Assembly (NCBI GenBank): GCA_002478945.1
Contig: DLKM01000028.1
Location: forward strand, 57,136 to 121,135
Reading direction: 5' to 3'
Source of the DNA: Christensenella sp. UBA7588
Lineage (GTDB): Bacteria; Bacillota; Clostridia; Christensenellales; CAG-917
Length of the DNA: 64,000 bases
Shown here: piece after piece, positions 1 to 62,167 of the stretch
Numbering within the stretch: position 1 is the first letter of the stretch
Layout of the letters: every line of letters begins with the position of its first letter
Notes under the pieces: model-generated
What the model was told of the DNA's origin: nothing
What the model saw: the letters and a program-made list of their open reading frames with translations, nothing else
Databases searched by the model: none
Position numbers and translations under genes: made by a program

Positions 1-1396
1 AAAATGCAACGACGTAGCGTGCGGCGCGTCGTCGAGAAACGACGGTTGCATTCATCCAGGCATCGATTTGCACAAAGGACAGCAAAAACTCAAATATGTG
101 CTTGCAGGCAACAAAGCGTATACGAAACTTGCCGAAGAACTCGGAATATCGCTTAAGCGTTGGGCGCAGATGTTCGTCTTTTCCACGAAGTGGGAAAACG
201 CGATTATTTCTCCGCTTTACAAACTGCGCGCAAAACAACTCGGCGTGGAGGGCGTAAGGCATCTCACGCCCAAACAAATAAAAGAAATAGAGCCGAATCC
301 GCCTGCGTGGGCAACAGGAGCGATGTATATGGCAACCGCAGGTATGGTTTCGCCGTATAAGACTACTATTGCGCTTATAGACAACGCAATCCAAAACGGC
401 GCAAAAGTGTCACTCGATACCTACGTTAAAGGTATGAAAGTCGAAAACGGAAAAATAGTGAGCGTTGAGACAAACAGAGGTACTATTTATCCAAAAGTCG
501 TCGTGAATTGCGCGGGAGTATATTCCGACGTGATTGCGGATATGGCAGGGGACAGAACGTTTACCATACATCCTCGCAAAGGCACGGATATAATTCTCGA
601 CAAAAAGAAAGTTGGTTACGCGTTGTCGTCTTACGCTCGCAGTTTCTTTGCCCCGCTTCCCAAAGAGAATCGTCCCGATACGAAAGAGCAAGTCGGACAC
701 ACGAAAGGCGGCGGCGTTATGCGCACCGTGGACGGAAATATCCTCGTAGGCCCCGACGCGCACGAAGTGCCGTCGAGAGAGGACTATTCGACTTCGATAG
801 AGGATATTGACAATATTATCAAAAAGCAAAAACTTGCCCAGCCGATGCTGAACAAGGGAGATATTATAACCTATTTTTCAGGCACGAGAGCCGCAACCTA
901 CGAAGAAGATTTCGTGGTGCGCAGGGGCATTTTCACAAGCAATATTTACGAAGCGGCGGGCATACAGTCTCCCGGAATCACGGCGGCTCCCGCAATCGCT
1001 TGCGATATACGAGATTGGGTTAAACGGGACCTCGGTATAGAGGACAATCCCTCTTTTAATCCCGTATACAAACACACTCCCAGACTTGCAGATTTGTCCG
1101 ACGAACAAAGACAGAATTATATCAAGTCCGACTCGGCGTACGGAGAGATTATCTGCCGTTGCGAGGAAGTGAGCAAAGGCGAAATCATCGACGCATTGAA
1201 CAGCCCTCTCAAGGTTGCGACTATTGACGGCATCAAGCGCAGAGTGCGCCCCGGTATGGGAAGATGTCAGGGCGGATTTTGTTCTCCGCTCGTTGCCAAA
1301 ATCATTGCCGAACACGAGGGTATCGAAATCGAGGACGTCCTTAAAGGAGACGAGGGCAGCGTAATCGTTTACGGCAATACGAAAGGAGGAATGTGA
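1..1396 (+). CDS. FAD-dependent oxidoreductase, anaerobic glycerol-3-phosphate dehydrogenase (GlpA)-like, with C-terminal BFD-like [2Fe-2S] domain; 5' end cut by window edge
   Basis: Frame 2 is open from nt 2 (..NDVACGASSRNDGCIHPGIDL..), so the TTG at 68 is not the real start. The body is a DAO-type FAD oxidoreductase. The C-terminal CRCEEVSKGEI...GMGRCQGGFC matches the BFD-like 2Fe-2S motif. The usual partner genes follow. Confidence 0.8.
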   Translation, partial: KCNDVACGASSRNDGCIHPGIDLHKGQQKLKYVLAGNKAYTKLAEELGISLKRWAQMFVFSTKWENAIISPLYKLRAKQLGVEGVRHLTPKQIKEIEPNPPAWATGAMYMATAGMVSPYKTTIALIDNAIQNGAKVSLDTYVKGMKVENGKIVSVETNRGTIYPKVVVNCAGVYSDVIADMAGDRTFTIHPRKGTDIILDKKKVGYALSSYARSFFAPLPKENRPDTKEQVGHTKGGGVMRTVDGNILVGPDAHEVPSREDYSTSIEDIDNIIKKQKLAQPMLNKGDIITYFSGTRAATYEEDFVVRRGIFTSNIYEAAGIQSPGITAAPAIACDIRDWVKRDLGIEDNPSFNPVYKHTPRLADLSDEQRQNYIKSDSAYGEIICRCEEVSKGEIIDALNSPLKVATIDGIKRRVRPGMGRCQGGFCSPLVAKIIAEHEGIEIEDVLKGDEGSVIVYGNTKGGM

Positions 1397-2997: not shown

Positions 2998-4581
2998 ATG
3001 AGCGAACCGTTGGTATTGACAATCGACTTCGGCACGCAGAGCGTGCGAGCGATGCTTTTCGATAAACACGGAAAAGACTACGGCAAAGAGAAAGTGCATT
3101 TCAAAGAACCGTATTATTCAAAAGAAATCGGTTGGGCGGAGCAGAAACCCGAGTTTTATTGGGATAAGCTCAAAGAGGCAACGAACGGGTTGAAAGCCAA
3201 ATGCGCCGATTTGTGGGACGATATTCGAGCGGTCAGCGTTACGACCATACGAGATACCGTCGTTTTCGTCGATAAGGACGGAAAACCGCTTCGAGACATT
3301 ATCCTGTGGCTCGACCAAAGAGAAGTCAAAGACGCCGACAAGACGAGATTCGGCTCGGGATTCAAATCTCTTTTGAGGCTTATCAATATGTACGATATGG
3401 CGGCAACGCAATGCAAGTCGTCCTCCTGCAACTGGGTACACGAGTACGAACCCGAAGTATGGGCGAAAATGCACAAGTGCCTTATGTTTTCGGGATACAT
3501 CACATACCGATTGACGGGCGTGATGAAAGATTCGGTGGCAAATCAGATAGGACATATCCCGTTCGATTATAAAAACAAAACTTGGCAAGGACCTCGCGCC
3601 ATAACCGCTCCGATATTCGATTTGAAAGCAAAAGATATGTGCGAACTTGTCGAACCGGGTACGGTTATCGGATATATCACGAAAGAAGCGTGCGCCGACC
3701 TCGGCATAAAAGAGGGCTTGCCCGTAATCGCTTCGGGTTCTGATAAGGGATGCGAAACTTTAGGTTCGGGTTGCGTGGACAGCACGGGCGCGTCGCTTTC
3801 GCTCGGGACTACGGCAACGGTACAGATGACCACCGACAAATATGTCGAAACAGAGCCTTTCGTGCCGTCTTATCCCGCGGTTTTGCCCGGGAAATACAAT
3901 CCCGAAGTGGAGATTTATCGCGGATATTGGATGCTTTCGTGGTTTAAGAACGAATTTGCGCACAAAGAAGTCAAAGAGGCAAAAGAACTCGGCGTTGCCG
4001 CAGAGGAGTTGCTCAACAGACACCTCAAAGACGTGCCTGCGGGATGCGAAGGCTTGATTTTGCAACCGTACTGGACGCCGGGTATCAAGCATCCGACGGC
4101 AAGAGGCGCAATACTCGGATTTGCCGATTGCCACACGCGCATACATATTTACAGAGCAATCATCGAGGGCATTGCGTACGGATTGTACGACGGTCTGCTG
4201 TCAATCCAACGCAAGACCAAAATAAAAGTGGAGTTTTTGGCGGTGTCGGGCGGCGGAAGCGAAAGCGACGAAATATGCCAGATAACGTCGAATATTATGG
4301 GAATCCCCGTTCGCAGAGCGCAAACGTACGAGACGTCGTCGCTCGGCGCGGCAATCACGGCGTTTAAGGGTTTGGGCGTATACAAGACCTTTGAAGAAGC
4401 GGCGCAGAATATGGTGCATATCTCCAAAGAGTTTACGCCGAATATGAAAGAACACGCCCTGTACGAGAAACTTTACAACCGTATCTATCGCAGAATTTAT
4501 CCCAACAACAAAAAACTCTACGATGATTTGAAGTTCATTTTGCGAAACGAAAAAGCAGAGAACGCAGAAACAGAAAAATAA
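2998..4581 (+). CDS. FGGY-family carbohydrate/polyol kinase
   Basis: LVLTIDFGTQSVRAMLFD phosphate-1 motif and the C-terminal FLAVSGGGSESDEICQITSNIMGIPV FGGY signature. An RGGGA-type RBS (gagaggga) lies upstream. Confidence 0.8.
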   Translation: MSEPLVLTIDFGTQSVRAMLFDKHGKDYGKEKVHFKEPYYSKEIGWAEQKPEFYWDKLKEATNGLKAKCADLWDDIRAVSVTTIRDTVVFVDKDGKPLRDIILWLDQREVKDADKTRFGSGFKSLLRLINMYDMAATQCKSSSCNWVHEYEPEVWAKMHKCLMFSGYITYRLTGVMKDSVANQIGHIPFDYKNKTWQGPRAITAPIFDLKAKDMCELVEPGTVIGYITKEACADLGIKEGLPVIASGSDKGCETLGSGCVDSTGASLSLGTTATVQMTTDKYVETEPFVPSYPAVLPGKYNPEVEIYRGYWMLSWFKNEFAHKEVKEAKELGVAAEELLNRHLKDVPAGCEGLILQPYWTPGIKHPTARGAILGFADCHTRIHIYRAIIEGIAYGLYDGLLSIQRKTKIKVEFLAVSGGGSESDEICQITSNIMGIPVRRAQTYETSSLGAAITAFKGLGVYKTFEEAAQNMVHISKEFTPNMKEHALYEKLYNRIYRRIYPNNKKLYDDLKFILRNEKAENAETEK

Positions 4582-24273: not shown

Positions 24274-24849
24274 ATGAGCGAATTTTCAAAGACAGTCGTG
24301 CTTGCGTCCGCATCGCCGAGGCGCAAGGACATTCTGCACGATATGGGGCTTGATTTTCAAATCTTGCCTTCGAGCGTGGACGAGAGCAAAATCAAGGCGA
24401 TTTTGCCTTGCAATCTCGTTGTGCGACTTGCAAAAGCAAAAGCGGACGACGTTGCCGAGCGCACGCAGGACGTGAGCGTAATCTCTGCGGATACAATCGT
24501 AGCGCGCGGAATGCGTGTGTATGGAAAGCCCAAAGACGAGCAGGACGCCGTGCGTATGATAAAAAGCCTCAACGGCAGATGGCATACGGTGTATACCGGT
24601 GTTTGCGTGAGGTGCAAGGATAAAGAAAAGACGTTTTTCGTGTCGTCCAAGGTCAAATTTAAGAATCTTACCCAAGACGAAATAACCGCTTACGTCAGAG
24701 AGTGCAAGCCTCTTGACAAAGCCGGCGCATACGGAATACAAGACCACAGAATAGTTGAAAAATACAAGGGAAGTTACACAAATATCGTGGGACTGCCCGA
24801 GGAAAAACTTGCCGAGATATTGAGGCAAGTCGGAGTTATCAATGGCTAA
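24274..24849 (+). CDS. maf: Maf-like nucleoside triphosphate pyrophosphatase
   Basis: VVLASASPRRKDIL...AGAYGIQD are canonical Maf motifs. The start at ATG 24274 lies inside the longer listed ORF. Confidence 0.9.
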   Translation: MSEFSKTVVLASASPRRKDILHDMGLDFQILPSSVDESKIKAILPCNLVVRLAKAKADDVAERTQDVSVISADTIVARGMRVYGKPKDEQDAVRMIKSLNGRWHTVYTGVCVRCKDKEKTFFVSSKVKFKNLTQDEITAYVRECKPLDKAGAYGIQDHRIVEKYKGSYTNIVGLPEEKLAEILRQVGVING

Positions 24850-25840
24850 TATAGAACTTTCAATCGATTTGGGAAGCAAATTTATCACGATATACCAAAA
24901 AGGTATAGGTCTCGTTTTGCGCGAGCCTGCAATCGCAATCGCTACAAAGGCTCGCAATCGTCTCGAAATCAGAGACGCAGGCTACAGAGCCGAAAGCGTT
25001 ATGACGGGCGCGCTCGGCGGAGCGAGAGTCATTGCTCCCATAAAGGAAGGCGTTATCGTCGACGAAGAAATGGCAACGATGCTTCTTGCGTATTTTCTCA
25101 AAAAGATTATGCCCGAGGGCTTGTTTGCTCCGAGAATAAAAGCAATCGTGTCCATTTGCGAGTCGTCGTCCAGTTCGGACAGGCGCGTAGTTGAAAAATG
25201 CTGCCTTAAAGCGGGCATAAAAGAAGTTACCCTCGTGGAATCTGGCTTGAGCCTCCTTGCGTATACGGGTAGCATCGGCGGACTGTTTGTGGATATAGGC
25301 GGCGGAAAAACGGAAATCTCCGCGGTTACCAATCACGGAATCGCAACGGGTTGCTCCGTCAATATCGCAGGAGACGCTTTCAACAATGCAATCATCGACA
25401 GCCTGTATATGAATTACGGCGTTAAAGTGGGCGAATTCACAATCGAAAATCTCAAAAAATCCGCACTTTCTTTCTATGTCAACGACGAAGGCAGTTATGC
25501 CGTAAGCGGCGGCAGTTCGGACGGCTCTCCTCGTTCGCTCTACGTTACGGCGGAAGCAATGCGTAATGCGGTTATTCCGCTCGTAGACGACATTATCGAA
25601 GTGATTATGTCCGTTCTCAACCAAACTCCGCCCGAATTGTCCGCGGAAATCTTGCGCAAGGGCATATTCGTCAGCGGCGGAAGTTTGCATATCCCCGGTC
25701 TTATCGAATATCTCGAGCAAGCTCTCGAGCTTCCCGTCACACCCCTCAAAGACATCGAAAACGCTATTGCAATAGGCGGTGCGGGGTTCTTTGACGAGCG
25801 GAATCTTTTGTCGGATATGCTCGGCGTCAAATTGTATTAA
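24842..25840 (+). CDS. mreB: divergent MreB/Mbl-family actin-like protein
   Basis: SIDLGSKFITIYQKGIGLVLREPAIAIA, DIGGGKTEIS and FVSGGSLHIPGL match the MreB phosphate/adenosine motifs with substitutions. It overlaps the maf stop. Confidence 0.75.
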   Translation: MANIELSIDLGSKFITIYQKGIGLVLREPAIAIATKARNRLEIRDAGYRAESVMTGALGGARVIAPIKEGVIVDEEMATMLLAYFLKKIMPEGLFAPRIKAIVSICESSSSSDRRVVEKCCLKAGIKEVTLVESGLSLLAYTGSIGGLFVDIGGGKTEISAVTNHGIATGCSVNIAGDAFNNAIIDSLYMNYGVKVGEFTIENLKKSALSFYVNDEGSYAVSGGSSDGSPRSLYVTAEAMRNAVIPLVDDIIEVIMSVLNQTPPELSAEILRKGIFVSGGSLHIPGLIEYLEQALELPVTPLKDIENAIAIGGAGFFDERNLLSDMLGVKLY

Positions 25841-25973
25841 AGCGCACTATTTAGCGAATAACTGCGTCAACACCCGTTCGCTACAAAATCACGTACGCCT
25901 TGTACGTTGGGTTTTGTATCAAACGGGTGTTTTCTTGTTCTTCATCCGTTTGGGACGCTTTAATGCAATTTGA
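25827..25973 (+). repeat. three-tier nested hairpin element, copy 1 (39-nt core identical to 59839-59877)
   Basis: The outer stem 25827-25844 / 25956-25973 is 18 bp with one G.U. The middle stem 25869-25878 / 25922-25931 is 10 bp and perfect. The core is 25879-25917. The outer left arm contains the TAA stop at 25838-25840. Confidence 0.85.
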
Positions 25974-26046
25974 GCTATTAAATATATTTATGATGTTTCT
26001 TATTCCTGTTTCGACGAAAAATTCGGAAAACGCACATTGAATACGT

Positions 26047-26256
26047 TCAACGAAGAACGTTGTTGTTTCCAATTAAAAAATCGGCAGTGCAGTTGAATAC
26101 CGCACAAATCTGTTTGAGTTGATAAAGACGAGGCTCTTGAACTCCGGACAGCCATTTGCTTATCGTACCTTGTGTTGTGCCTACAGCTTTTGCAAGTGAC
26201 TCCTGTGTAAAACCGTTCTCTATCATTAATTCTTTGAGATTATCTTTGAATTGCAT
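26047..26256 (-). CDS. XRE-family helix-turn-helix transcriptional regulator (69 aa)
   Basis: LKELMIENGFTQESLAKAVGTTQGTISKWLSG is a classic HTH_3 motif. The start at ATG 26256 lies inside the longer ORF. Confidence 0.85.
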   Translation of the reverse strand: MQFKDNLKELMIENGFTQESLAKAVGTTQGTISKWLSGVQEPRLYQLKQICAVFNCTADFLIGNNNVLR

Positions 26257-26289
26257 AATTATATTGTATGTAAAATATTCGATTTGGAA

Positions 26290-26318
26290 TTGACATATTC
26301 GAAAACGAATGTTATGAT
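26290..26318 (+). promoter_or_regulatory. putative promoter of the lipoprotein gene with an embedded palindromic operator
   Basis: TTGACA (26290-26295), a 17-nt spacer, then TATGAT (26313-26318). The spacer contains the palindrome ATTCGAAAACGAAT (26297-26310), and another ATTCGA lies just upstream. Confidence 0.55.
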
Positions 26319-26373
26319 AAAGCAAATGAAATACATTTTGTATTTTTACTATTGTATTTAAGGAGGGGAAACT

Positions 26374-27258
26374 ATGAAGAAATTTTTTCCGATTTTAGTT
26401 GTTTTAATCATTTGTGTGGTTTTTGGGTCTTTTGTTGCGTGCAATAAAAAGGACGAATCAAAAGATATTTTGCGTTCTGATATGACGCTTGACGAAGTCA
26501 AAGAAGCGTTAAAAGACGTAAAAAGTTATAGGAGGCAATCTCGCACATCGGACGCGGACGGAGCGGTTTTAGAGGATTATGTGTTCGGCACAAACGGTTA
26601 TTCTCTCGTTGTGGAAAGAATTAGTTTTTATGACGTTACTTTTTTCGAAGATAACAAGTATTATTATATGTATGGCAATAGCGATGTTGAGGAAATTATG
26701 ATTGTCGACTGTTCGGGGTATGATGTGAATTACGACTTTGACAGAGAGGGCGTGGATGTTCTTGTTTCTCTTATGACGGAGTACGGCTATACAATAAAAG
26801 ACAATACTATATACATCGAGGATGTTAATACACATTCTACGCACGTCTTTTACGAATTTAATGTGGCAAAAACGGAGCCTTACGGTAAATACAAAAGCAC
26901 TTACAAAACGCTTCAACCGACCACGTCTTTGCTGGTTTATGGGGATTTAGATGATAATTCTTGCGAGCTTGCCGAAGTCAATGCGCCGCTCAAGACGTTG
27001 CAAATACCCGAGGCATATAACGGAAAATCGGTAACGAAAGTCGTTTGCGAAAACGTGAAAAATCTGATAATCCCTAAAACCGTTAAAGAATTAAGATTAC
27101 GTTCAATAAGCGATGATATGATTATTACATATTTAGGAACAAAAGAAGAATTTTACGCAAACGTACGGACGAATACTTCAATAGCCGCTTGCGATATTGA
27201 ATGTTCGGACGGTACGATAAAAAAAGGAGACAGTCTCACGGTATCGAATGGGAATTGA
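26374..27258 (+). CDS. lipoprotein of unknown function with a C-terminal BspA-type leucine-rich-repeat-like segment
   Basis: Signal peptide with lipobox FVAC, strong RBS AAGGAGGGG, AT-rich codon usage, and LQIPEAYNGKSVTKVVCENVKNLIIPKTVKEL, which resembles LRR_5 repeats. Confidence 0.7.
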   Translation: MKKFFPILVVLIICVVFGSFVACNKKDESKDILRSDMTLDEVKEALKDVKSYRRQSRTSDADGAVLEDYVFGTNGYSLVVERISFYDVTFFEDNKYYYMYGNSDVEEIMIVDCSGYDVNYDFDREGVDVLVSLMTEYGYTIKDNTIYIEDVNTHSTHVFYEFNVAKTEPYGKYKSTYKTLQPTTSLLVYGDLDDNSCELAEVNAPLKTLQIPEAYNGKSVTKVVCENVKNLIIPKTVKELRLRSISDDMIITYLGTKEEFYANVRTNTSIAACDIECSDGTIKKGDSLTVSNGN

Positions 27259-27332
27259 AAAATTCGATTGTCGGAATGCGCGTGTTAAAAACATAAAAGC
27301 CGATTTCGACAAACACACTCCAAAATCGACAG

Positions 27333-27366
27333 AAACAGACATCTATATACGGTGTCTGTTTTTTAT
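27333..27366 (+). terminator. rho-independent terminator
   Basis: Stem AAACAGACATC pairs with GGTGTCTGTTT around loop TATATAC, followed by a T-run. Confidence 0.75.
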
Positions 27367-58418: not shown

Positions 58419-58493
58419 CGACAAACTAAAATTATTATAGACAAAGGTCATACGACACCGCCGATGCGGAATATACTTTTACCGGAGAAAGGT

Positions 58494-59801
58494 ATGAAAG
58501 TATGTAAATTCGGCGGAACGTCAATGGCAAACGGCGCCACCGTATCGCAAGTTATCAAGATTATAGACAGTGATGCGGACAGGCGCTTTATCGTTGTCTC
58601 CGCACCCGGGAAACGCAACGTAACCGACGTCAAAATTACCGACGCGCTATATGCGTGTTACGACGAGAAAAAGAGAAACGGCAACTGTTCAAAGTCATTC
58701 GAAGTCGTGAAAAAACGCTTTTCCGATATGGTCAAAAGCCTCGATATAGATTTTGACGTTTTTCCCGCGCTCGACGATATAAAAGACAGAATCGAGCGTA
58801 GCGAAACGAGCGATTACGCCGCTTCGAGAGGGGAGTATCTGTGCGCGCGATTACTTGCCGCAAAACTCGGATTCGAGTTTGTGGACGCCGCCGACGTGAT
58901 AAAATTCGACGACGAGGGAAGATTGCTTACCTCGTATTCGCTCGGACTTATAAAAAAGAGGCTCGACGGCGTAAAGTATGCGGTCATTCCGGGCTTTTAC
59001 GGCTCGGATTGCAAAGATAACATCAAAACTTTTTCGAGAGGCGGCTCGGATATAACGGGCGCGCTCGTCGCAAGAGCGGTGTGCGCCGACGTTTACGAAA
59101 ACTGGACGGACGTGGACGGTTTTTTGCGTGCAGACCCTCGCATAGTGGAAAATCCTGCCTTAATCGATTGCTTGAGTTACAGAGAATTGAGAGAACTTTC
59201 GTATATGGGGGCGGAAGTGTTGCATCCCGAATCTATTTTCCCCGTGCGAAGCGCAGGCATTCCGATAAACGTCAAAAATACGTTCAATCCCTCTTGCGAG
59301 GGAACTATGATAGTTGCAGAAAAAAGCCTGCCCAAAGGAGATTGCGTAGTAACGGGTATTGCGGGCAAAAAGGGCTTTACAATCGTAAATATCGAAAAAG
59401 ATATGATGAATTCCGAGATAGGTTTCGGCAGAAAGGCATTGTCCGTTCTCGAGGCAGAGGGGATACCGTTCGAGCATATTCCGTCGGGAATAGACACTCT
59501 GTCCGTTGTTGTGAGAGACGAGTATATCGCAGGCAAAATGCAAAAAGTGCTTGCAAGCCTGCAGAAACTGCTCAACGCCGACAATATAGAGATACACAGC
59601 GGTCTTGCTCTCATCGCAACCGTCGGACACAATATGGCGTCGCGCCGCGGCACCGCCGCAACTCTTTTCAAAGCCCTCTCCGACAGCAACGTCAACGTCC
59701 GAATGATAGACCAAGGTTCTTCCGAACTGAATATAATCGTTGCGGTGGACGCAACGGATTACGAGAAGGCTATCAACGCCATATACAACTCGTTTGTATA
59801 A
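58494..59801 (+). CDS. aspartate kinase
   Basis: MKVCKFGGTSMANG N-terminus, FSRGGSDITGA, and WTDVDGFLRADPRIV, with two C-terminal ACT-like regions. RBS GGAGAAAGG upstream. Confidence 0.9.
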   Translation: MKVCKFGGTSMANGATVSQVIKIIDSDADRRFIVVSAPGKRNVTDVKITDALYACYDEKKRNGNCSKSFEVVKKRFSDMVKSLDIDFDVFPALDDIKDRIERSETSDYAASRGEYLCARLLAAKLGFEFVDAADVIKFDDEGRLLTSYSLGLIKKRLDGVKYAVIPGFYGSDCKDNIKTFSRGGSDITGALVARAVCADVYENWTDVDGFLRADPRIVENPALIDCLSYRELRELSYMGAEVLHPESIFPVRSAGIPINVKNTFNPSCEGTMIVAEKSLPKGDCVVTGIAGKKGFTIVNIEKDMMNSEIGFGRKALSVLEAEGIPFEHIPSGIDTLSVVVRDEYIAGKMQKVLASLQKLLNADNIEIHSGLALIATVGHNMASRRGTAATLFKALSDSNVNVRMIDQGSSELNIIVAVDATDYEKAINAIYNSFV

Positions 59802-59923
59802 ACGCGTCAAATAGCGCCTGACTTTGGCAGCGCGCATCCGCTACAAAATCACGTACGCCTTGTACGTTGGGTTTTGTCTCGGACGCGCGCTTTCGCGTTA
59901 TCCATCTATTTGACGCGTTTATA
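59797..59923 (+). repeat. three-tier nested hairpin element, copy 2 (39-nt core identical to 25879-25917)
   Basis: The outer stem 59797-59814 / 59906-59923 is 18 bp and perfect. The middle stem 59829-59840 / 59880-59891 pairs 11 of 12. The core is 59839-59877. The outer left arm contains the TAA stop at 59799-59801. Confidence 0.85.
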
Positions 59924-60380
59924 ATATAGGGGTGGGGTGTTGAGCGAATAACTGTGTTAGAGCGCATTAAGTGCGTTTTTAACAGAGTGTATCGTAGCTC
60001 CTCTAAATACAATAACCCCCTCTTTCCGGACACGCCGGTATTTCTCCCGCCACTCGTATAGGGACATTCCTCTACAATGGAAAACATCGCTCGCGGGGGA
60101 GACAACGGCACTCACATAGATAGGGATATTTCTCTCATTATGCCACCGTCCTTTGTGTGACTGCTACGCAACAACACGTCACAGTCGGACGGTACTAATC
60201 GTCGAGTTCGGCGCTCAAAGGCTCGCCGCCTTGCGGCTCGAATCCCGTCTTCGAAATCATACATACCGTGTATAGGTTACGCTTCGAATGGACACATTCC
60301 GCGTATAAGCACGCAATAAGCGATTTGTTGATAAGTGTGCCTTGAACGAGAGCGGAACAAGCGGTAAAACAAAACAACCC
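59924..60380. ncRNA. candidate structured non-coding RNA or decayed element of unknown family
   Basis: About 450 nt with coding-like GC, but no credible ORF or RBS. There are many local hairpins, several with G.U pairs that work only on the + strand. An AT-rich pckA promoter region lies on the 3' side. Confidence 0.3.
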
Positions 60381-60562
60381 TTAAAATTTTCTTAAACATT
60401 TGCTAAATATTTTTATTGATAAAAATTTACTTTTATTTTGTCGCAGAATATTGTATAATAACGGCAATGGATATTAAATATCCTTAATACGGTAAAATAA
60501 TTCGTATCTCGTCAATCGGCGCGGTGCGAAATAAAGATTTTTTATAAGGAGAGATGATATTT

Positions 60563-62167
60563 ATGAAAAATATCGACTTGACAAAATACGGTATCACAGG
60601 TACGACCGAAGTGGTGTACAACCCCTCTTACGAGATGTTGTTTGAGGAAGAAACCAAGCCCGAACTTCAAGGCTATGAAAAAGGTCAGGTAAGCGAACTC
60701 GGCGCAGTCAACGTTATGACGGGCGTTTATACGGGTCGTTCGCCCAAGGACAAATTTATCGTCGTCGACGACAACTCCAAAGACACGATTTGGTGGACTT
60801 CGGACGAATACAAGAACGACAACCATCCCGCATCTCAAGAAGCGTGGAAAGCGGTCAAGGACATCGCAATCAAAGAGTTGTCAAACAAGAGATTGTTTGT
60901 CGTGGACGCATTCTGCGGCGCAAACAAGGACACTCGTATGGCTATCCGCTTTATCGTGGAAGTTGCTTGGCAAGCGCACTTTGTCAAGAATATGTTTATC
61001 AAGCCGACTGCGGAAGAACTTGAAAACTTCGAGCCTGATTTCGTAGTTTACAATGCGTCCAAAGCAAAAGTGGAGAATTATAAAGAACTCGGTCTCAACT
61101 CCGAAACGGCGGTGGTATTCAACATCACGAGCCGCGAGCAAGTAATCATCAACACTTGGTACGGCGGAGAAATGAAGAAAGGTATGTTCTCTATGATGAA
61201 CTATTATTTGCCGCTCAAAGGCATTGCGTCTATGCATTGCTCGGCAAACACCGATATGGACGGCAAAAACACCGCAATCTTCTTCGGACTTTCAGGCACG
61301 GGCAAAACCACTCTTTCCACCGACCCCAAACGTTTGCTTATCGGCGACGACGAACACGGCTGGGACGACAACGGCGTATTCAACTTCGAGGGCGGTTGCT
61401 ATGCAAAGGTCATAAACCTCGACAAGGATTCCGAACCCGACATTTACAACGCAATCAAACGCAACGCTTTGCTTGAAAACGTAACTTTGGACGAAAACGG
61501 CAAAATCGATTTCGCAGATAAGAGCGTGACGGAAAACACTCGTGTTTCCTATCCTATCGACCATATCAAGAACATCGTTCGCCCCGTTTCCGCGGCTCCT
61601 GACGCAAAGAGCGTTATCTTCTTGTCCGCAGACGCATTCGGAGTATTGCCGCCCGTCTCCATTCTCACGCCCGAGCAAACGCAATACTACTTCTTGTCCG
61701 GTTTTACCGCAAAACTTGCTGGTACCGAGCGCGGCATAACCGAGCCGACTCCGACTTTCTCCGCTTGCTTCGGTCAAGCGTTCCTCGAATTGCATCCCAC
61801 CAAATATGCAGAGGAACTCGTCAAGAAGATGCAAAAGAGCGGTGCGAAAGCATACCTCGTCAACACGGGTTGGAACGGCACGGGCAAGCGTATCTCCATA
61901 AAGGATACCAGAGGCATCATCGACGCGATTTTGAGCGGCGACATCGACAAAGCACCCACCAAGACCATTCCGTATTTCAACTTTGAAGTGCCGACTCAAC
62001 TTGCAGGTGTGGACAGCGGCATTCTCGACCCGCGCGACACTTATGCAAACGTCGAAGATTGGAACAAGAAAGCGGTTGACCTTGCAGGTCGCTTCATCAA
62101 GAACTTTGCGAAGTACGAAGGCAACGCTCACGGCAAAGCACTCGTTCCCGCAGGTCCGCAACTTTAA
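60563..62167 (+). CDS. pckA: phosphoenolpyruvate carboxykinase (ATP)
   Basis: [19 protein letters not shown], the [13 protein letters not shown] kinase-1a motif, and [12 protein letters not shown] 60563 is correctly spaced from RBS AAGGAGAG. Confidence 0.95.

Follow-up and report, generated by a model that had tools for sequence, protein, structure and literature searches.

Two loci in the 64,000-nt stretch of Christensenella sp. UBA7588 contig DLKM01000028.1 analysed here (the window) carry copies of the same nested hairpin: copy 1 lies at the end of an MreB/Mbl-family gene and copy 2 at the end of an aspartate-kinase gene. These copies belong to a new, previously undescribed family of interspersed repeats. 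Judged from sequence, the family may well be terminator-like and spreading, each member being a putative nested intrinsic terminator or 3'-end hairpin and not a regulatory device peculiar to one gene; this is the explanation we favour, at about even probability. The inner modules of the hairpins are swapped among copies much faster than point substitution accumulates.

Both copies had been picked out by a sequence-only reading of the window, and the pairing it described for copy 2 holds. The outer arms, 59797-59814 (TATAAACGCGTCAAATAG) and 59906-59923, are exact reverse complements (18/18), and the aspartate-kinase stop codon, placed by the open reading frame (ORF) list at 59799-59801, is inside the left one. 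The middle stem (59829-59840 with 59880-59891) is paired at 11 of 12 positions with A.C as the sole exception, and the 39-nt apex CGCTACAAAATCACGTACGCCTTGTACGTTGGGTTTTGT is the same at 25879-25917 and 59839-59877. A 38-nt core of this apex matches the window twice and was never found in 100 shuffles. Both loci fold as one long nested rod (-63.1 and -63.7 kcal/mol as RNA, z = -6.4 and -7.4); copy 2 folded as DNA gives the same structure (-39.5 kcal/mol, z = -6.9), and the opposite strand also forms the same nested rod. The family model matches copy 2 with E = 2e-32 and, according to nhmmer, these two copies are the only ones in the window. The TAA of the MreB/Mbl gene (25838-25840) sits in the left outer arm of copy 1, whose palindrome reaches 12-15 nt into the MreB-like coding sequence. 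In both copies the right outer arm is, as had been claimed, an inverted gene end including the stop codon. The aspartate-kinase ORF was identified via the Pfam AA_kinase/ACT domains of its homologues, and the window gene retains the native C-terminus ..AIYHAF-x* (..AIYxxFx*).

An exact scan of one genome per species with the apex pattern ATCACGTAC-N5-GTACGTTGGGTTTT has found 113 stretches in about 20 species-level metagenome-assembled genomes (MAGs), all of uncultured Clostridia (labelled as Christensenella sp., Clostridiales and Firmicutes bacterium CAG:475, plus a few bins whose labels are evidently wrong). At least 14 copies come from a single closed genome of 1.65 Mb, CP091723.1. Extraction from the apex scan yielded 109 non-redundant copies, and a junction-based search 41 more with other versions of the apex (CAACTCATGTAC..GTACATTAGGGTTG, CAAGTCACGTAC..GTACGTTAGGCTTG, ACCCGTCACGTAC..GTACGCTGGGCGGG). 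In total, 131 distinct copies were aligned with MAFFT/RNAalifold. Individual loci are designated below by L and a number.

The element is a rod of about 127 nt consisting of six helices with conserved asymmetric junctions between them (Table 1). Common to the copies are the junctions AGCGAATAACTGCGTCA and TTTCCTTGTTCTTCATC and a U.G pair beside a 2-nt bulge; the apex variants retain this pair and the bulge, and their helices covary. Helix positions are paired in about 70-100% of the 131 copies (P1 in about 70-90%, P2-P6 mostly in 85-100%) and take two to five Watson-Crick pair types each, one P4 position being CG in 37 copies, AU in 33, GC in 27 and UA in 14. P3 covaries from GAATAAC/GTTCTTC to GAATAGC/GCTCTTC and GCCTAAC/GTTATGC, and the P4 alleles recur across loci and species. 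Conservation is highest in the junctions and the apex; the outermost 10 bp or so are the most variable columns yet complementary. The suggestion that complementarity is kept while the stem sequence changes is thus borne out by the family as a whole, and so is the expectation that the stems flanking other copies are complementary and reach the upstream stop codon.

Table 1. Features of the repeat copies and their surroundings in window coordinates, and parts of the family model (numbering based on the A of ATCACG, which in copy 2 is position 59848 of the window)
Feature	Position	Strand	Pairing, evidence or remark
Copy 2 of the nested-hairpin repeat, full length 127 nt	59797..59923	+	sequence, folds, nhmmer
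P1 left arm, outer locus-variable stem, TATAAACGCGT	59797..59807	+	pairs with 59913-59923
P2 left arm, 7-mer allele CAAATAG	59808..59814	+	pairs with 59906-59912 CTATTTG
Left conserved junction; family consensus CGAATAACTGCGTC	59815..59828	+	column conservation
P3 arm GCCTGAC, inside left junction	59816-59822	+	pairs with GTTATCC 59897-59903
P4 middle-stem left arm AGCGCGCATCCG	59829..59840	+	11/12 paired with 59880-59891
Conserved apex (P5, TG bulge, P6, loop)	59841..59879	+	
P5 with U.G pair	59843-59850 / 59870-59877	+	TG bulge 59868-59869
P6 ACGTAC/GTACGT and variable 5-nt loop	loop 59857-59861	+	
Right conserved junction, T-rich, TTCGCGTTATCCAT; consensus TTTCCTTGTTCTTCAT	59892..59905	+	directly 3' of middle stem
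Right arms of P2 and P1	59906..59923	+	inverted gene end including stop codon
Copy 1 of the repeat	25823..25977	+	core element ~25837-25963
Family P1, outer stem, ~11 bp	-51..-41 with +65..+75		
Family P2, 7 bp	-40..-34 with +58..+64		7-mer alleles TAAATAG, TATTGAG, CAAACGG, others
Family J			C on left side, AT on right side
Family P3, 7 bp			GAATAAC with GTTCTTC; conserved U.C mismatch
Family internal loop			TGCGTCA / TTTCCTT
Family P4, middle stem, 12 bp			few discrete alleles: ACACCCATCCG, GGCACGGCTTG, GCGCGCATCCG, others
Family P5	-5..2 with 22..29		invariant U.G pair
Family bulge, P6 and loop			2-nt bulge; P6 ACGTAC/GTACGT; variable 5-nt loop
Aspartate-kinase gene	58464..59801	+	ORF list; TAA 59799-59801 within left outer arm
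MreB/Mbl-family gene	24842..25840	+	Pfam MreB_Mbl E = 8.7e-57
Half-element: left junction TTGAGCGAATAACTGTGTTA fused to plain terminator hairpin GAGCGCAttaaGTGCGTTTTT	59940..59985	+	directly upstream of R300
R300, separate ~300-nt dispersed non-coding repeat	59989..60292	+	neighbour distal to hairpin, not part of it

Aspartate-kinase loci found via the protein provide a set without ascertainment bias for the apex. Their coding sequences (CDS) are about 75% identical to that of the window; in the copies with the same type of apex (apex-1), the apex is 88-94% identical versus 29-71% for the middle stem. An apex this similar beside a CDS at 75% implies some constraint or homogenisation acting on the apex.

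That the two window copies share an apex and differ in their stems is explained simply by their being two allelic subtypes within the family. The sequence-only reading regarded the stems of the two copies as unrelated. The outer and middle stem sequences do differ, but both copies share the family junctions (AGCGAATAACTGCGTCA/AGCGCCTGACTTTGGCA on the left, TTTCTTGTTCTTCATC/TTTCGCGTTATCCATC on the right), and the outer arms of both match a loose family consensus (T)AAA-nGCGC. Complementarity holds for the outer and middle tiers of both copies but fails in the second tier of copy 1, where TATTTAG on the left (25848-25854) faces CCGTTTG on the right (25946-25952). The element is present at the same site in the orthologues L076 and L029, and L076 has a matching second-tier right arm, CTAAATA. 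Because the P2 arms of copy 1 do not match while those of L076 do, copy 1 is a recombinant hybrid. The short motif GCGTCAAAT does occur at both 25823-25831 and 59804-59812, as had been pointed out. In copy 1, however, it belongs to the MreB-like reading frame (GVKLY*) and is preserved at the protein level in L029 and L076, on which ground the recurrence was put down to coincidence and rejected as a shared feature of the element.

The family is strongly tied to gene ends and to one strand. The left neighbour gene is co-oriented with the element in 93 of 107 copies, and the arrangement gene-element-gene in one direction was met 30 times versus a single mirror case. Together with the 113 stretches found, this agrees with the earlier idea of a dispersed element tied to gene 3' ends, resembling a repetitive extragenic palindrome (REP) or a MITE (miniature inverted-repeat transposable element). 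The upstream stop codon starts at -54..-48 in 44 of 66 copies, and most of the remaining ORFs run a few codons into the element, stopping in P2/P3 at -40, -37/-36 or -29. The left end of the palindrome falls at -50 to -54 in 56 of 97 copies, and in 29 of 44 it comes within 3 nt of the base with which the stop codon begins. Since copies without an upstream ORF end at the same place, the length of the element is intrinsic.

The stop codon itself appears to be part of the element in many cases. In L125 the element lies 32 nt downstream of the aspartate-kinase stop, yet it still starts with TAAAAAGTGCACC (TAAAAAG), which indicates that the TAA is often supplied by the element. Adjacent stop codons are distributed as 36 TAA : 6 TGA : 0 TAG, versus 24:21:5 among the window genes; in the TGA cases the right arm has TCA, so the stop is within the palindrome either way. 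The ordinary terminators of the window begin 5-40 nt past the stop codon and do not include it. The proposal that the stems are built from local sequence is therefore correct only in part: some left-to-right arm copying does take place (copy 1/L076, L020), but the palindrome length is intrinsic and the TAA is often the element's own. A stop-codon-sequestering role gains no support from the tests made and would not be needed to explain these data.

The aspartate-kinase site could be followed across many genomes. The element is located exactly at the stop codon in the window and in L006, L096, L036, L115, L126/127, L133-135, L139 and L142. It is also at the stop in L119 and L144, which belong to a very diverged subfamily (aspartate kinase 68% identical); here the stem begins at the T of the stop codon and has the same C.T mismatch beside P2. 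The palindrome of L143 begins 6 nt after the start of the TAA, not at it. In L060 and L128-130 the last 4-8 codons come from the element or its remnants (IYH|KMRY*, AIYQTSLNRA*), and L145 retains the left half of the element alone. Element-free sites with ordinary terminators were found in L117, L114, L121-L124, L131, L132 and all loci with no more than 56% identity.

If the outer stem were older than the core, its two arms could be expected at such empty sites. The pair of arms was not found at any of these element-free sites, L117, L121-L124 and L131 among them, and none of the sites is isogenic with a filled one; the closest empty/filled pair, L131 versus L126, is 86% identical. Exact-protein look-ups and a metagenome scan returned no isogenic empty site, the empty sites coming from other species only. 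L132 has a plain hairpin starting from the TAA (TAAAGAACGGCACTC..GAGTGCCATTTTTA) where its relatives have the element. Two other arrangements were observed at element-free sites. In L121 (2080-2230), from a genome without the element, the last 37 nt or so of the aspartate-kinase gene, TAG stop included, are present three times in tandem downstream. In L114 (2785-2880), three tandem short hairpins (AGTGATATTGCGCCCGCGGCGC...) follow an aspartate-kinase gene 91% identical to that of the window; its product has a different C-terminal tail (..IRCIYEKYGE*), and an inverted R300 fragment is located further downstream.

The exchange of inner modules is best seen in L133, L134 and L135, where aspartate-kinase genes with 98.7-99.4% identity are followed by three configurations within the same outer stem TGACCGCGC..GCGCGGTCA. 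L133 and L135 have one element each, differing in P3, P4 and the type of apex. In L134 a further complete element, which has a right arm GCGCGGTCA of its own, precedes the L135 element, and the latter holds here a 53-nt hairpin, X. L206, whose aspartate kinase is 99% identical to that of the window, shares P1 and P2 with it, has a different P3 and carries X. Similarly, L099 and L100 have P1 and P2 in common and differ in P4, and L096 and L036 have only P1 in common, with P2-P4 different. Such differences between near-identical strains within one outer stem mean that turnover is fast. At the same time, copies persist at orthologous sites across up to 9 species. As the same P4 alleles recur in many loci and species, the changes of inner modules represent replacements from other copies rather than stepwise compensation. 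In L020 (2570-3030) three elements succeed one another; on their right, both the first and the third are flanked by the inverted upstream gene end with 12 nt of coding sequence included (ctccgttcagaaTAAgcgcgc / tcgcgcTTAttcttgaacggag).

The X hairpin (53-56 nt, GGACGCGATTGACGCAAAGCGTAACAATCGCTATTCCGTCACTTCGTTCCTTAC; L134:~3010-3065 compared with L135) is present or absent inside otherwise identical elements in strains whose flanking genes are 99% identical. It was also found in L022, L024, L028, L030, L031, L054, L092 and L206, as well as inside the R300 copies of L048 and L111. X looks like an independently inserting mini-element. Its identification as a group II intron or the end of an insertion sequence (IS) was rejected, X being an optional hairpin module inside the left junction.

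The variable stems had been taken as a signature of selection on structure. At the RNA level, the wobble pairs lend this no support: G.U and A.C are about equally frequent (37 versus 50 in P4, 32 versus 37 in P2, 9 versus 12 in the outer stem), and folding favours the antisense over the sense RNA by 2.3 kcal/mol on average (88 versus 42 copies, Wilcoxon p = 2e-6). On these two results RNA covariation under selection was dropped as the primary cause of the variable stems, which behave instead as DNA palindromes. Furthermore, the right arms are inverted coding sequence in copy 1, in L076 (GVKLY*, constrained by the protein) and in L020. Since these arms mirror protein-constrained sequence, left-to-right arm copying must occur at the DNA level.

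Other features of the element do depend on the strand. The U.G pair with the bulge, the C.T and U.C mismatches and the T-rich right junctions are kept in every subfamily. The T fraction just 3' of P4 is 0.58 in sense versus 0.19 in the antisense equivalent, and A:T pairs have the A on the 5' arm in a ratio of 310:27 in P3 and 453:5 in P5. The GC-rich 12-bp middle stem is followed by TTTCCTTGTTCTT, giving the hairpin and U-rich tract by which a terminator is recognised, and many outer stems are followed by TTTTTAC. This succession of A tract, GC stem and U tract is the polarity of an intrinsic terminator, repeated at each tier. The apex alone is reported as a mini-terminator by a simple terminator scan, and degenerate copies (L029, L078 and window 59940-59985) have a plain terminator hairpin between the same junctions.

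We propose that the element would be transcribed as the 3' end of the upstream gene and that termination would result from the GC-rich hairpin of P4 to P6 with the conserved U-rich tract behind it, a combination confined to the sense strand. A terminator or 3'-end role would explain the strict sense orientation and the position at gene ends. The inner modules would be exchanged among copies via ectopic gene conversion or recombination, and the complementarity of the arms would be kept by DNA-level copying from arm to arm (template switching within the palindrome), not by stepwise RNA compensation. We infer terminator function, gene conversion and intra-palindrome template switching alike from the patterns described above.

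Several points weigh against this proposal. With an inner hairpin of about 60 nt and a rod of 127 nt, the element is outside the typical size of a terminator (stem 5-14 bp, loop 3-10 nt), and the native terminators of the window are simple hairpins. In some gene-element-gene cases the next ORF lies only about 15-30 nt past the element, which is hard to square with an efficient terminator. If termination follows the middle stem, the outer stems would never form in RNA, so their upkeep would have to proceed at the DNA level. The terminator model does not account for the coincidence of the left end with the stop codon, on which the TAAAA terminus serving as a stop and the excess of TAA bear. Clustering of 596 ORFs from 113 loci of 8 kb produced orthologous housekeeping sets only and no mobilising enzyme. 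Finally, mis-threading of short-read metagenome assemblies could inflate the apparent module swapping, although the complementarity of the arms argues against gross chimeras.

The same data can be read in terms of RNA recognition. A cis-acting structured RNA could be bound at its apex and junctions by a trans factor (a protein, or a nuclease such as RNase III), the rod with a stop codon at its base coupling translation termination to mRNA processing, stability or downstream expression. Conserved loops and junctions with covarying helices are typical of functional RNAs, the U.G pair and bulge are invariant and strand-specific in all apex variants, the orientation is strictly sense, the stop codon lies at the hairpin base even in the TGA/TCA cases, and at the protein-found loci the apex is more conserved than the neighbouring CDS. 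A near-perfect duplex of about 25 bp formed by P1, P2 and P3 is also a plausible RNase III substrate. Yet G.U does not exceed A.C in any variable helix, antisense folds are on average the more stable ones, module swapping and hybrid copies point to DNA-level dynamics, the upstream genes (aspartate kinase, MreB and many others) lack a common function, and no Rfam family corresponds to the element; we consider such an RNA unlikely to be the explanation. A broader idea, which we regard as quite unlikely, is that the family represents a new structure-defined class of elements, with apex and junctions read by a dedicated enzyme or RNA-binding factor and stems rebuilt from one arm by hairpin-templated copying whenever a module is installed. 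The element would then dock precisely at stop codons, its base helix linking the stop codon with downstream sequence, and would amount to a mobile hairpin aimed at stop codons or else to a 3'-end regulatory code used genome-wide in a clade of gut Clostridia. The R300 and X modules might be part of that same structure-read system.

Three further explanations, all of them concerned with DNA, appear very unlikely to us. A folded single-stranded DNA recombination site (attC-like, or a hairpin substrate of an HUH or tyrosine recombinase) would swap its inner module by recombination at the base. The 7-bp box GCCTAAC..GTTATGC fits RYYYAAC exactly and GTTRRRY at 6/7; past it, either side has some 7 nt of unpaired spacer, and then come a stem and a tip that both vary. 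Recognition by structure with Watson-Crick stems only, the sense orientation directly after ORFs and the swapping of whole inner modules within a constant outer stem in near-identical strains would all suit such a site. However, the pairing continues for 18 bp past the box (P2 and P1), where the next cassette should begin beyond R', and the commonest box, GAATAAC/GTTCTTC, does not fit RYYYAAC/GTTRRRY; the flanks are housekeeping genes scattered over the chromosome and not cassette arrays, with no integrase or multi-copy recombinase ORF in the 113 loci. A classical MITE moved in trans by a DDE transposase, with P1-P3 as terminal inverted repeats, would be consistent with the size of about 127 bp, the long imperfect inverted ends with AAAA/TTTT termini, the copy number, and the truncated and nested copies in hot-spot 'graveyards'. 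We hold it to be just as doubtful: the outermost 10 bp are the most variable part, whereas ends bound by a transposase should be the most conserved, and no direct target duplication is visible in the flanks of the palindromes inspected. The 113 loci of 8 kb contain neither an IS with matching ends nor a repeated transposase ORF, no phage or plasmid match was obtained, and many copies occupy orthologous sites in up to 9 species. It is similarly improbable that the outer stems are ordinary terminators that existed beforehand and received the element in their loops by insertion or conversion, so that the inverted gene end pre-dates the core. The outer arms do consist of an A tract, a GC-rich stem and a T tract, native terminators of the window also pair A tracts with T runs, the outer stem stays constant as the inner module changes, and L132 provides a plain hairpin starting at the TAA. 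On the other hand, native terminators of the window and of the empty aspartate-kinase sites start 5-45 nt past the stop codon and exclude it, the length of the outer stem is fixed at about 11 bp, TGA/TCA occur in the stem even without a following T run, and orthologous genes can differ in the outer stem (L051 versus L091).

Searches with the element itself gave little. Rfam gave no match to the element at the gathering threshold in the whole window and five loci, and no relevant one at E<=10 around copy 2; there is no tRNA or tmRNA in 59700-60600, and blastn in distant mode found no match in phage and plasmid collections. In IMG/VR a degenerate apex pattern retrieved a single true copy, on a contig of 24 kb, and a second match that is probably due to chance; this does not amount to a phage link. 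The true copy is L208 (UViG_3300045988_168779, positions 1-75), on a contig classified as viral. No description of the family is present in the literature covered by full-text search.

The sequence-only reading noted that atypical DNA follows both copies, which is right in either case: an accessory insert with an XRE-type regulator, absent from L076, after copy 1, and a repeat family of about 300 nt after copy 2. The AT-rich insert of about 1.4 kb (26000-27350) directly follows copy 1 and is located upstream of a MinD/ParA-like ATPase gene. Encoded in it are, on the minus strand, an XRE-type helix-turn-helix regulator (26047-26325) and, at 26374-27258, an ORF whose function is unknown. The repeat near copy 2, R300, is well conserved and has 69 nhmmer matches in 47 of the 113 loci; it occurs in either orientation, every time distal to the hairpin elements. 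Its conserved blocks include CCCCCTCTTTCCGGACACGCCGGTATTTCTCCC and CGCTCGCGGGGGAGACA, at least one helix clearly covaries, and no Rfam, tRNA or tmRNA match was obtained for it. R300 may be a novel multi-copy non-coding RNA or a mobile element, apparently a structured one. The half-element upstream of it in the window occurs with R300 in the same arrangement in L078; L132 has the plain terminator alone.

Another long hairpin, formed by the conserved sequence CGAACAAAAGCCGTCATTGCGGCAACGGC..., replaces the right outer arms directly after CTTCATC in L007, L025, L030, L056, L059, L070, L075 and L095. In L025 (3250-3500) it is located just upstream of the signal recognition particle (SRP) RNA gene (Rfam match 3509-3773). 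A flank designated Y (CGAACAAAAGCC...) was considered as a second IS end and rejected, being more likely part of an orthologous locus in which it is conserved upstream of the SRP RNA gene.

Small interspersed repeats have been described in cultured model bacteria; the present family comes from an uncultured human-gut lineage with genomes of about 1.6 Mb. It departs from textbook repeats in several respects. Its loops, junctions and apex are conserved and its complementary stems variable, the reverse of REP and MITE; its length is fixed and its orientation strictly sense; it abuts and sometimes supplies stop codons or encodes the last few codons of housekeeping proteins; and its inner modules are swapped where the adjacent genes of two strains are only about 1% apart. 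Should the terminator reading be true, the family would show how termination signals spread and renew themselves in the form of semi-selfish modules. Should the apex be read by a dedicated factor, this would be a new system of recombination or RNA recognition. In practical terms, these repeats break short-read assemblies (L206 ends inside one) and change the predicted protein C-termini in MAG annotation.

Several known systems share one or another trait with the family. attC sites are likewise defined by their fold with little sequence conservation; they combine a 7-bp box with an unpaired central spacer and with a stem and tip that vary, and they lie in sense orientation directly after ORFs. 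The identification with attC fails because the pairing runs 18 bp past the box and there are no cassettes; no integrase was found near the copies, and adjacent copies are 20-50 nt apart without an ORF between them. Correia/NEMIS elements of Neisseria are hairpin repeats of 100-150 bp that are co-transcribed with genes, processed as long duplex RNA and modulate the mRNA level (see PMC3184786). They resemble the family as hairpin-forming repeats of this size, but their terminal inverted repeats are conserved over 26 bp, and they come with a TA duplication as well as IHF and promoter sites; nothing of this was seen in the family.

REP/BIME/REPIN elements are, like the family, extragenic palindromes found between convergent or co-directional genes and in clusters, with proposed roles in termination and mRNA stabilisation; a REPIN consists of two REPs in inverted order around a variable spacer. 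A CGTC-like motif, GCGTCA, just 5' of the family's middle stem can be compared with the CGTC tags of REPs (PMC3733652). REPs are, however, only 20-40 nt long with a conserved stem and a variable loop, which is reversed in the family, and their head motif is GTAG/CGTC, while the family's YGKC is degenerate. No RAYT gene was seen as a repeated ORF in the 8-kb loci around the copies, in which no RAYT-aimed search was made. ERIC (enterobacterial repetitive intergenic consensus) elements are imperfect palindromes in transcribed intergenic regions, often at gene 3' ends, which are co-transcribed with genes and affect mRNA stability (PMC3184786). ERIC/IRU and the family are alike as imperfect palindromes of the same size, about 127 bp. 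In ERIC-type elements the terminal inverted repeats are conserved and the target TA is duplicated (PMC3184786), and both orientations occur. The family differs in that its ends are the least conserved part, no duplication was seen and the sense orientation prevails 30:1.

SPRITE of S. pneumoniae is a terminator-like repeat of about 105 bp with AAAA/TTTT termini, strongly enriched near CDS 3' ends, for which neither a target duplication nor a matching IS was found and which was proposed to be co-opted as a terminator (PMC3049150). Both SPRITE and the family are small interspersed repeats of Firmicutes with a long stem and a U-rich tract, A-run/T-run termini and a location at CDS 3' ends (PMC3049150). 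The likeness is one of function and architecture, with no sequence similarity. SPRITE forms one 18-bp duplex, unlike the three-tier rod of the family, and has not been reported with variable complementary stems around conserved loops, inclusion of the stop codon or rapid module exchange. By analogy, we would place the family closest in kind to SPRITE, and close in size and context to ERIC.

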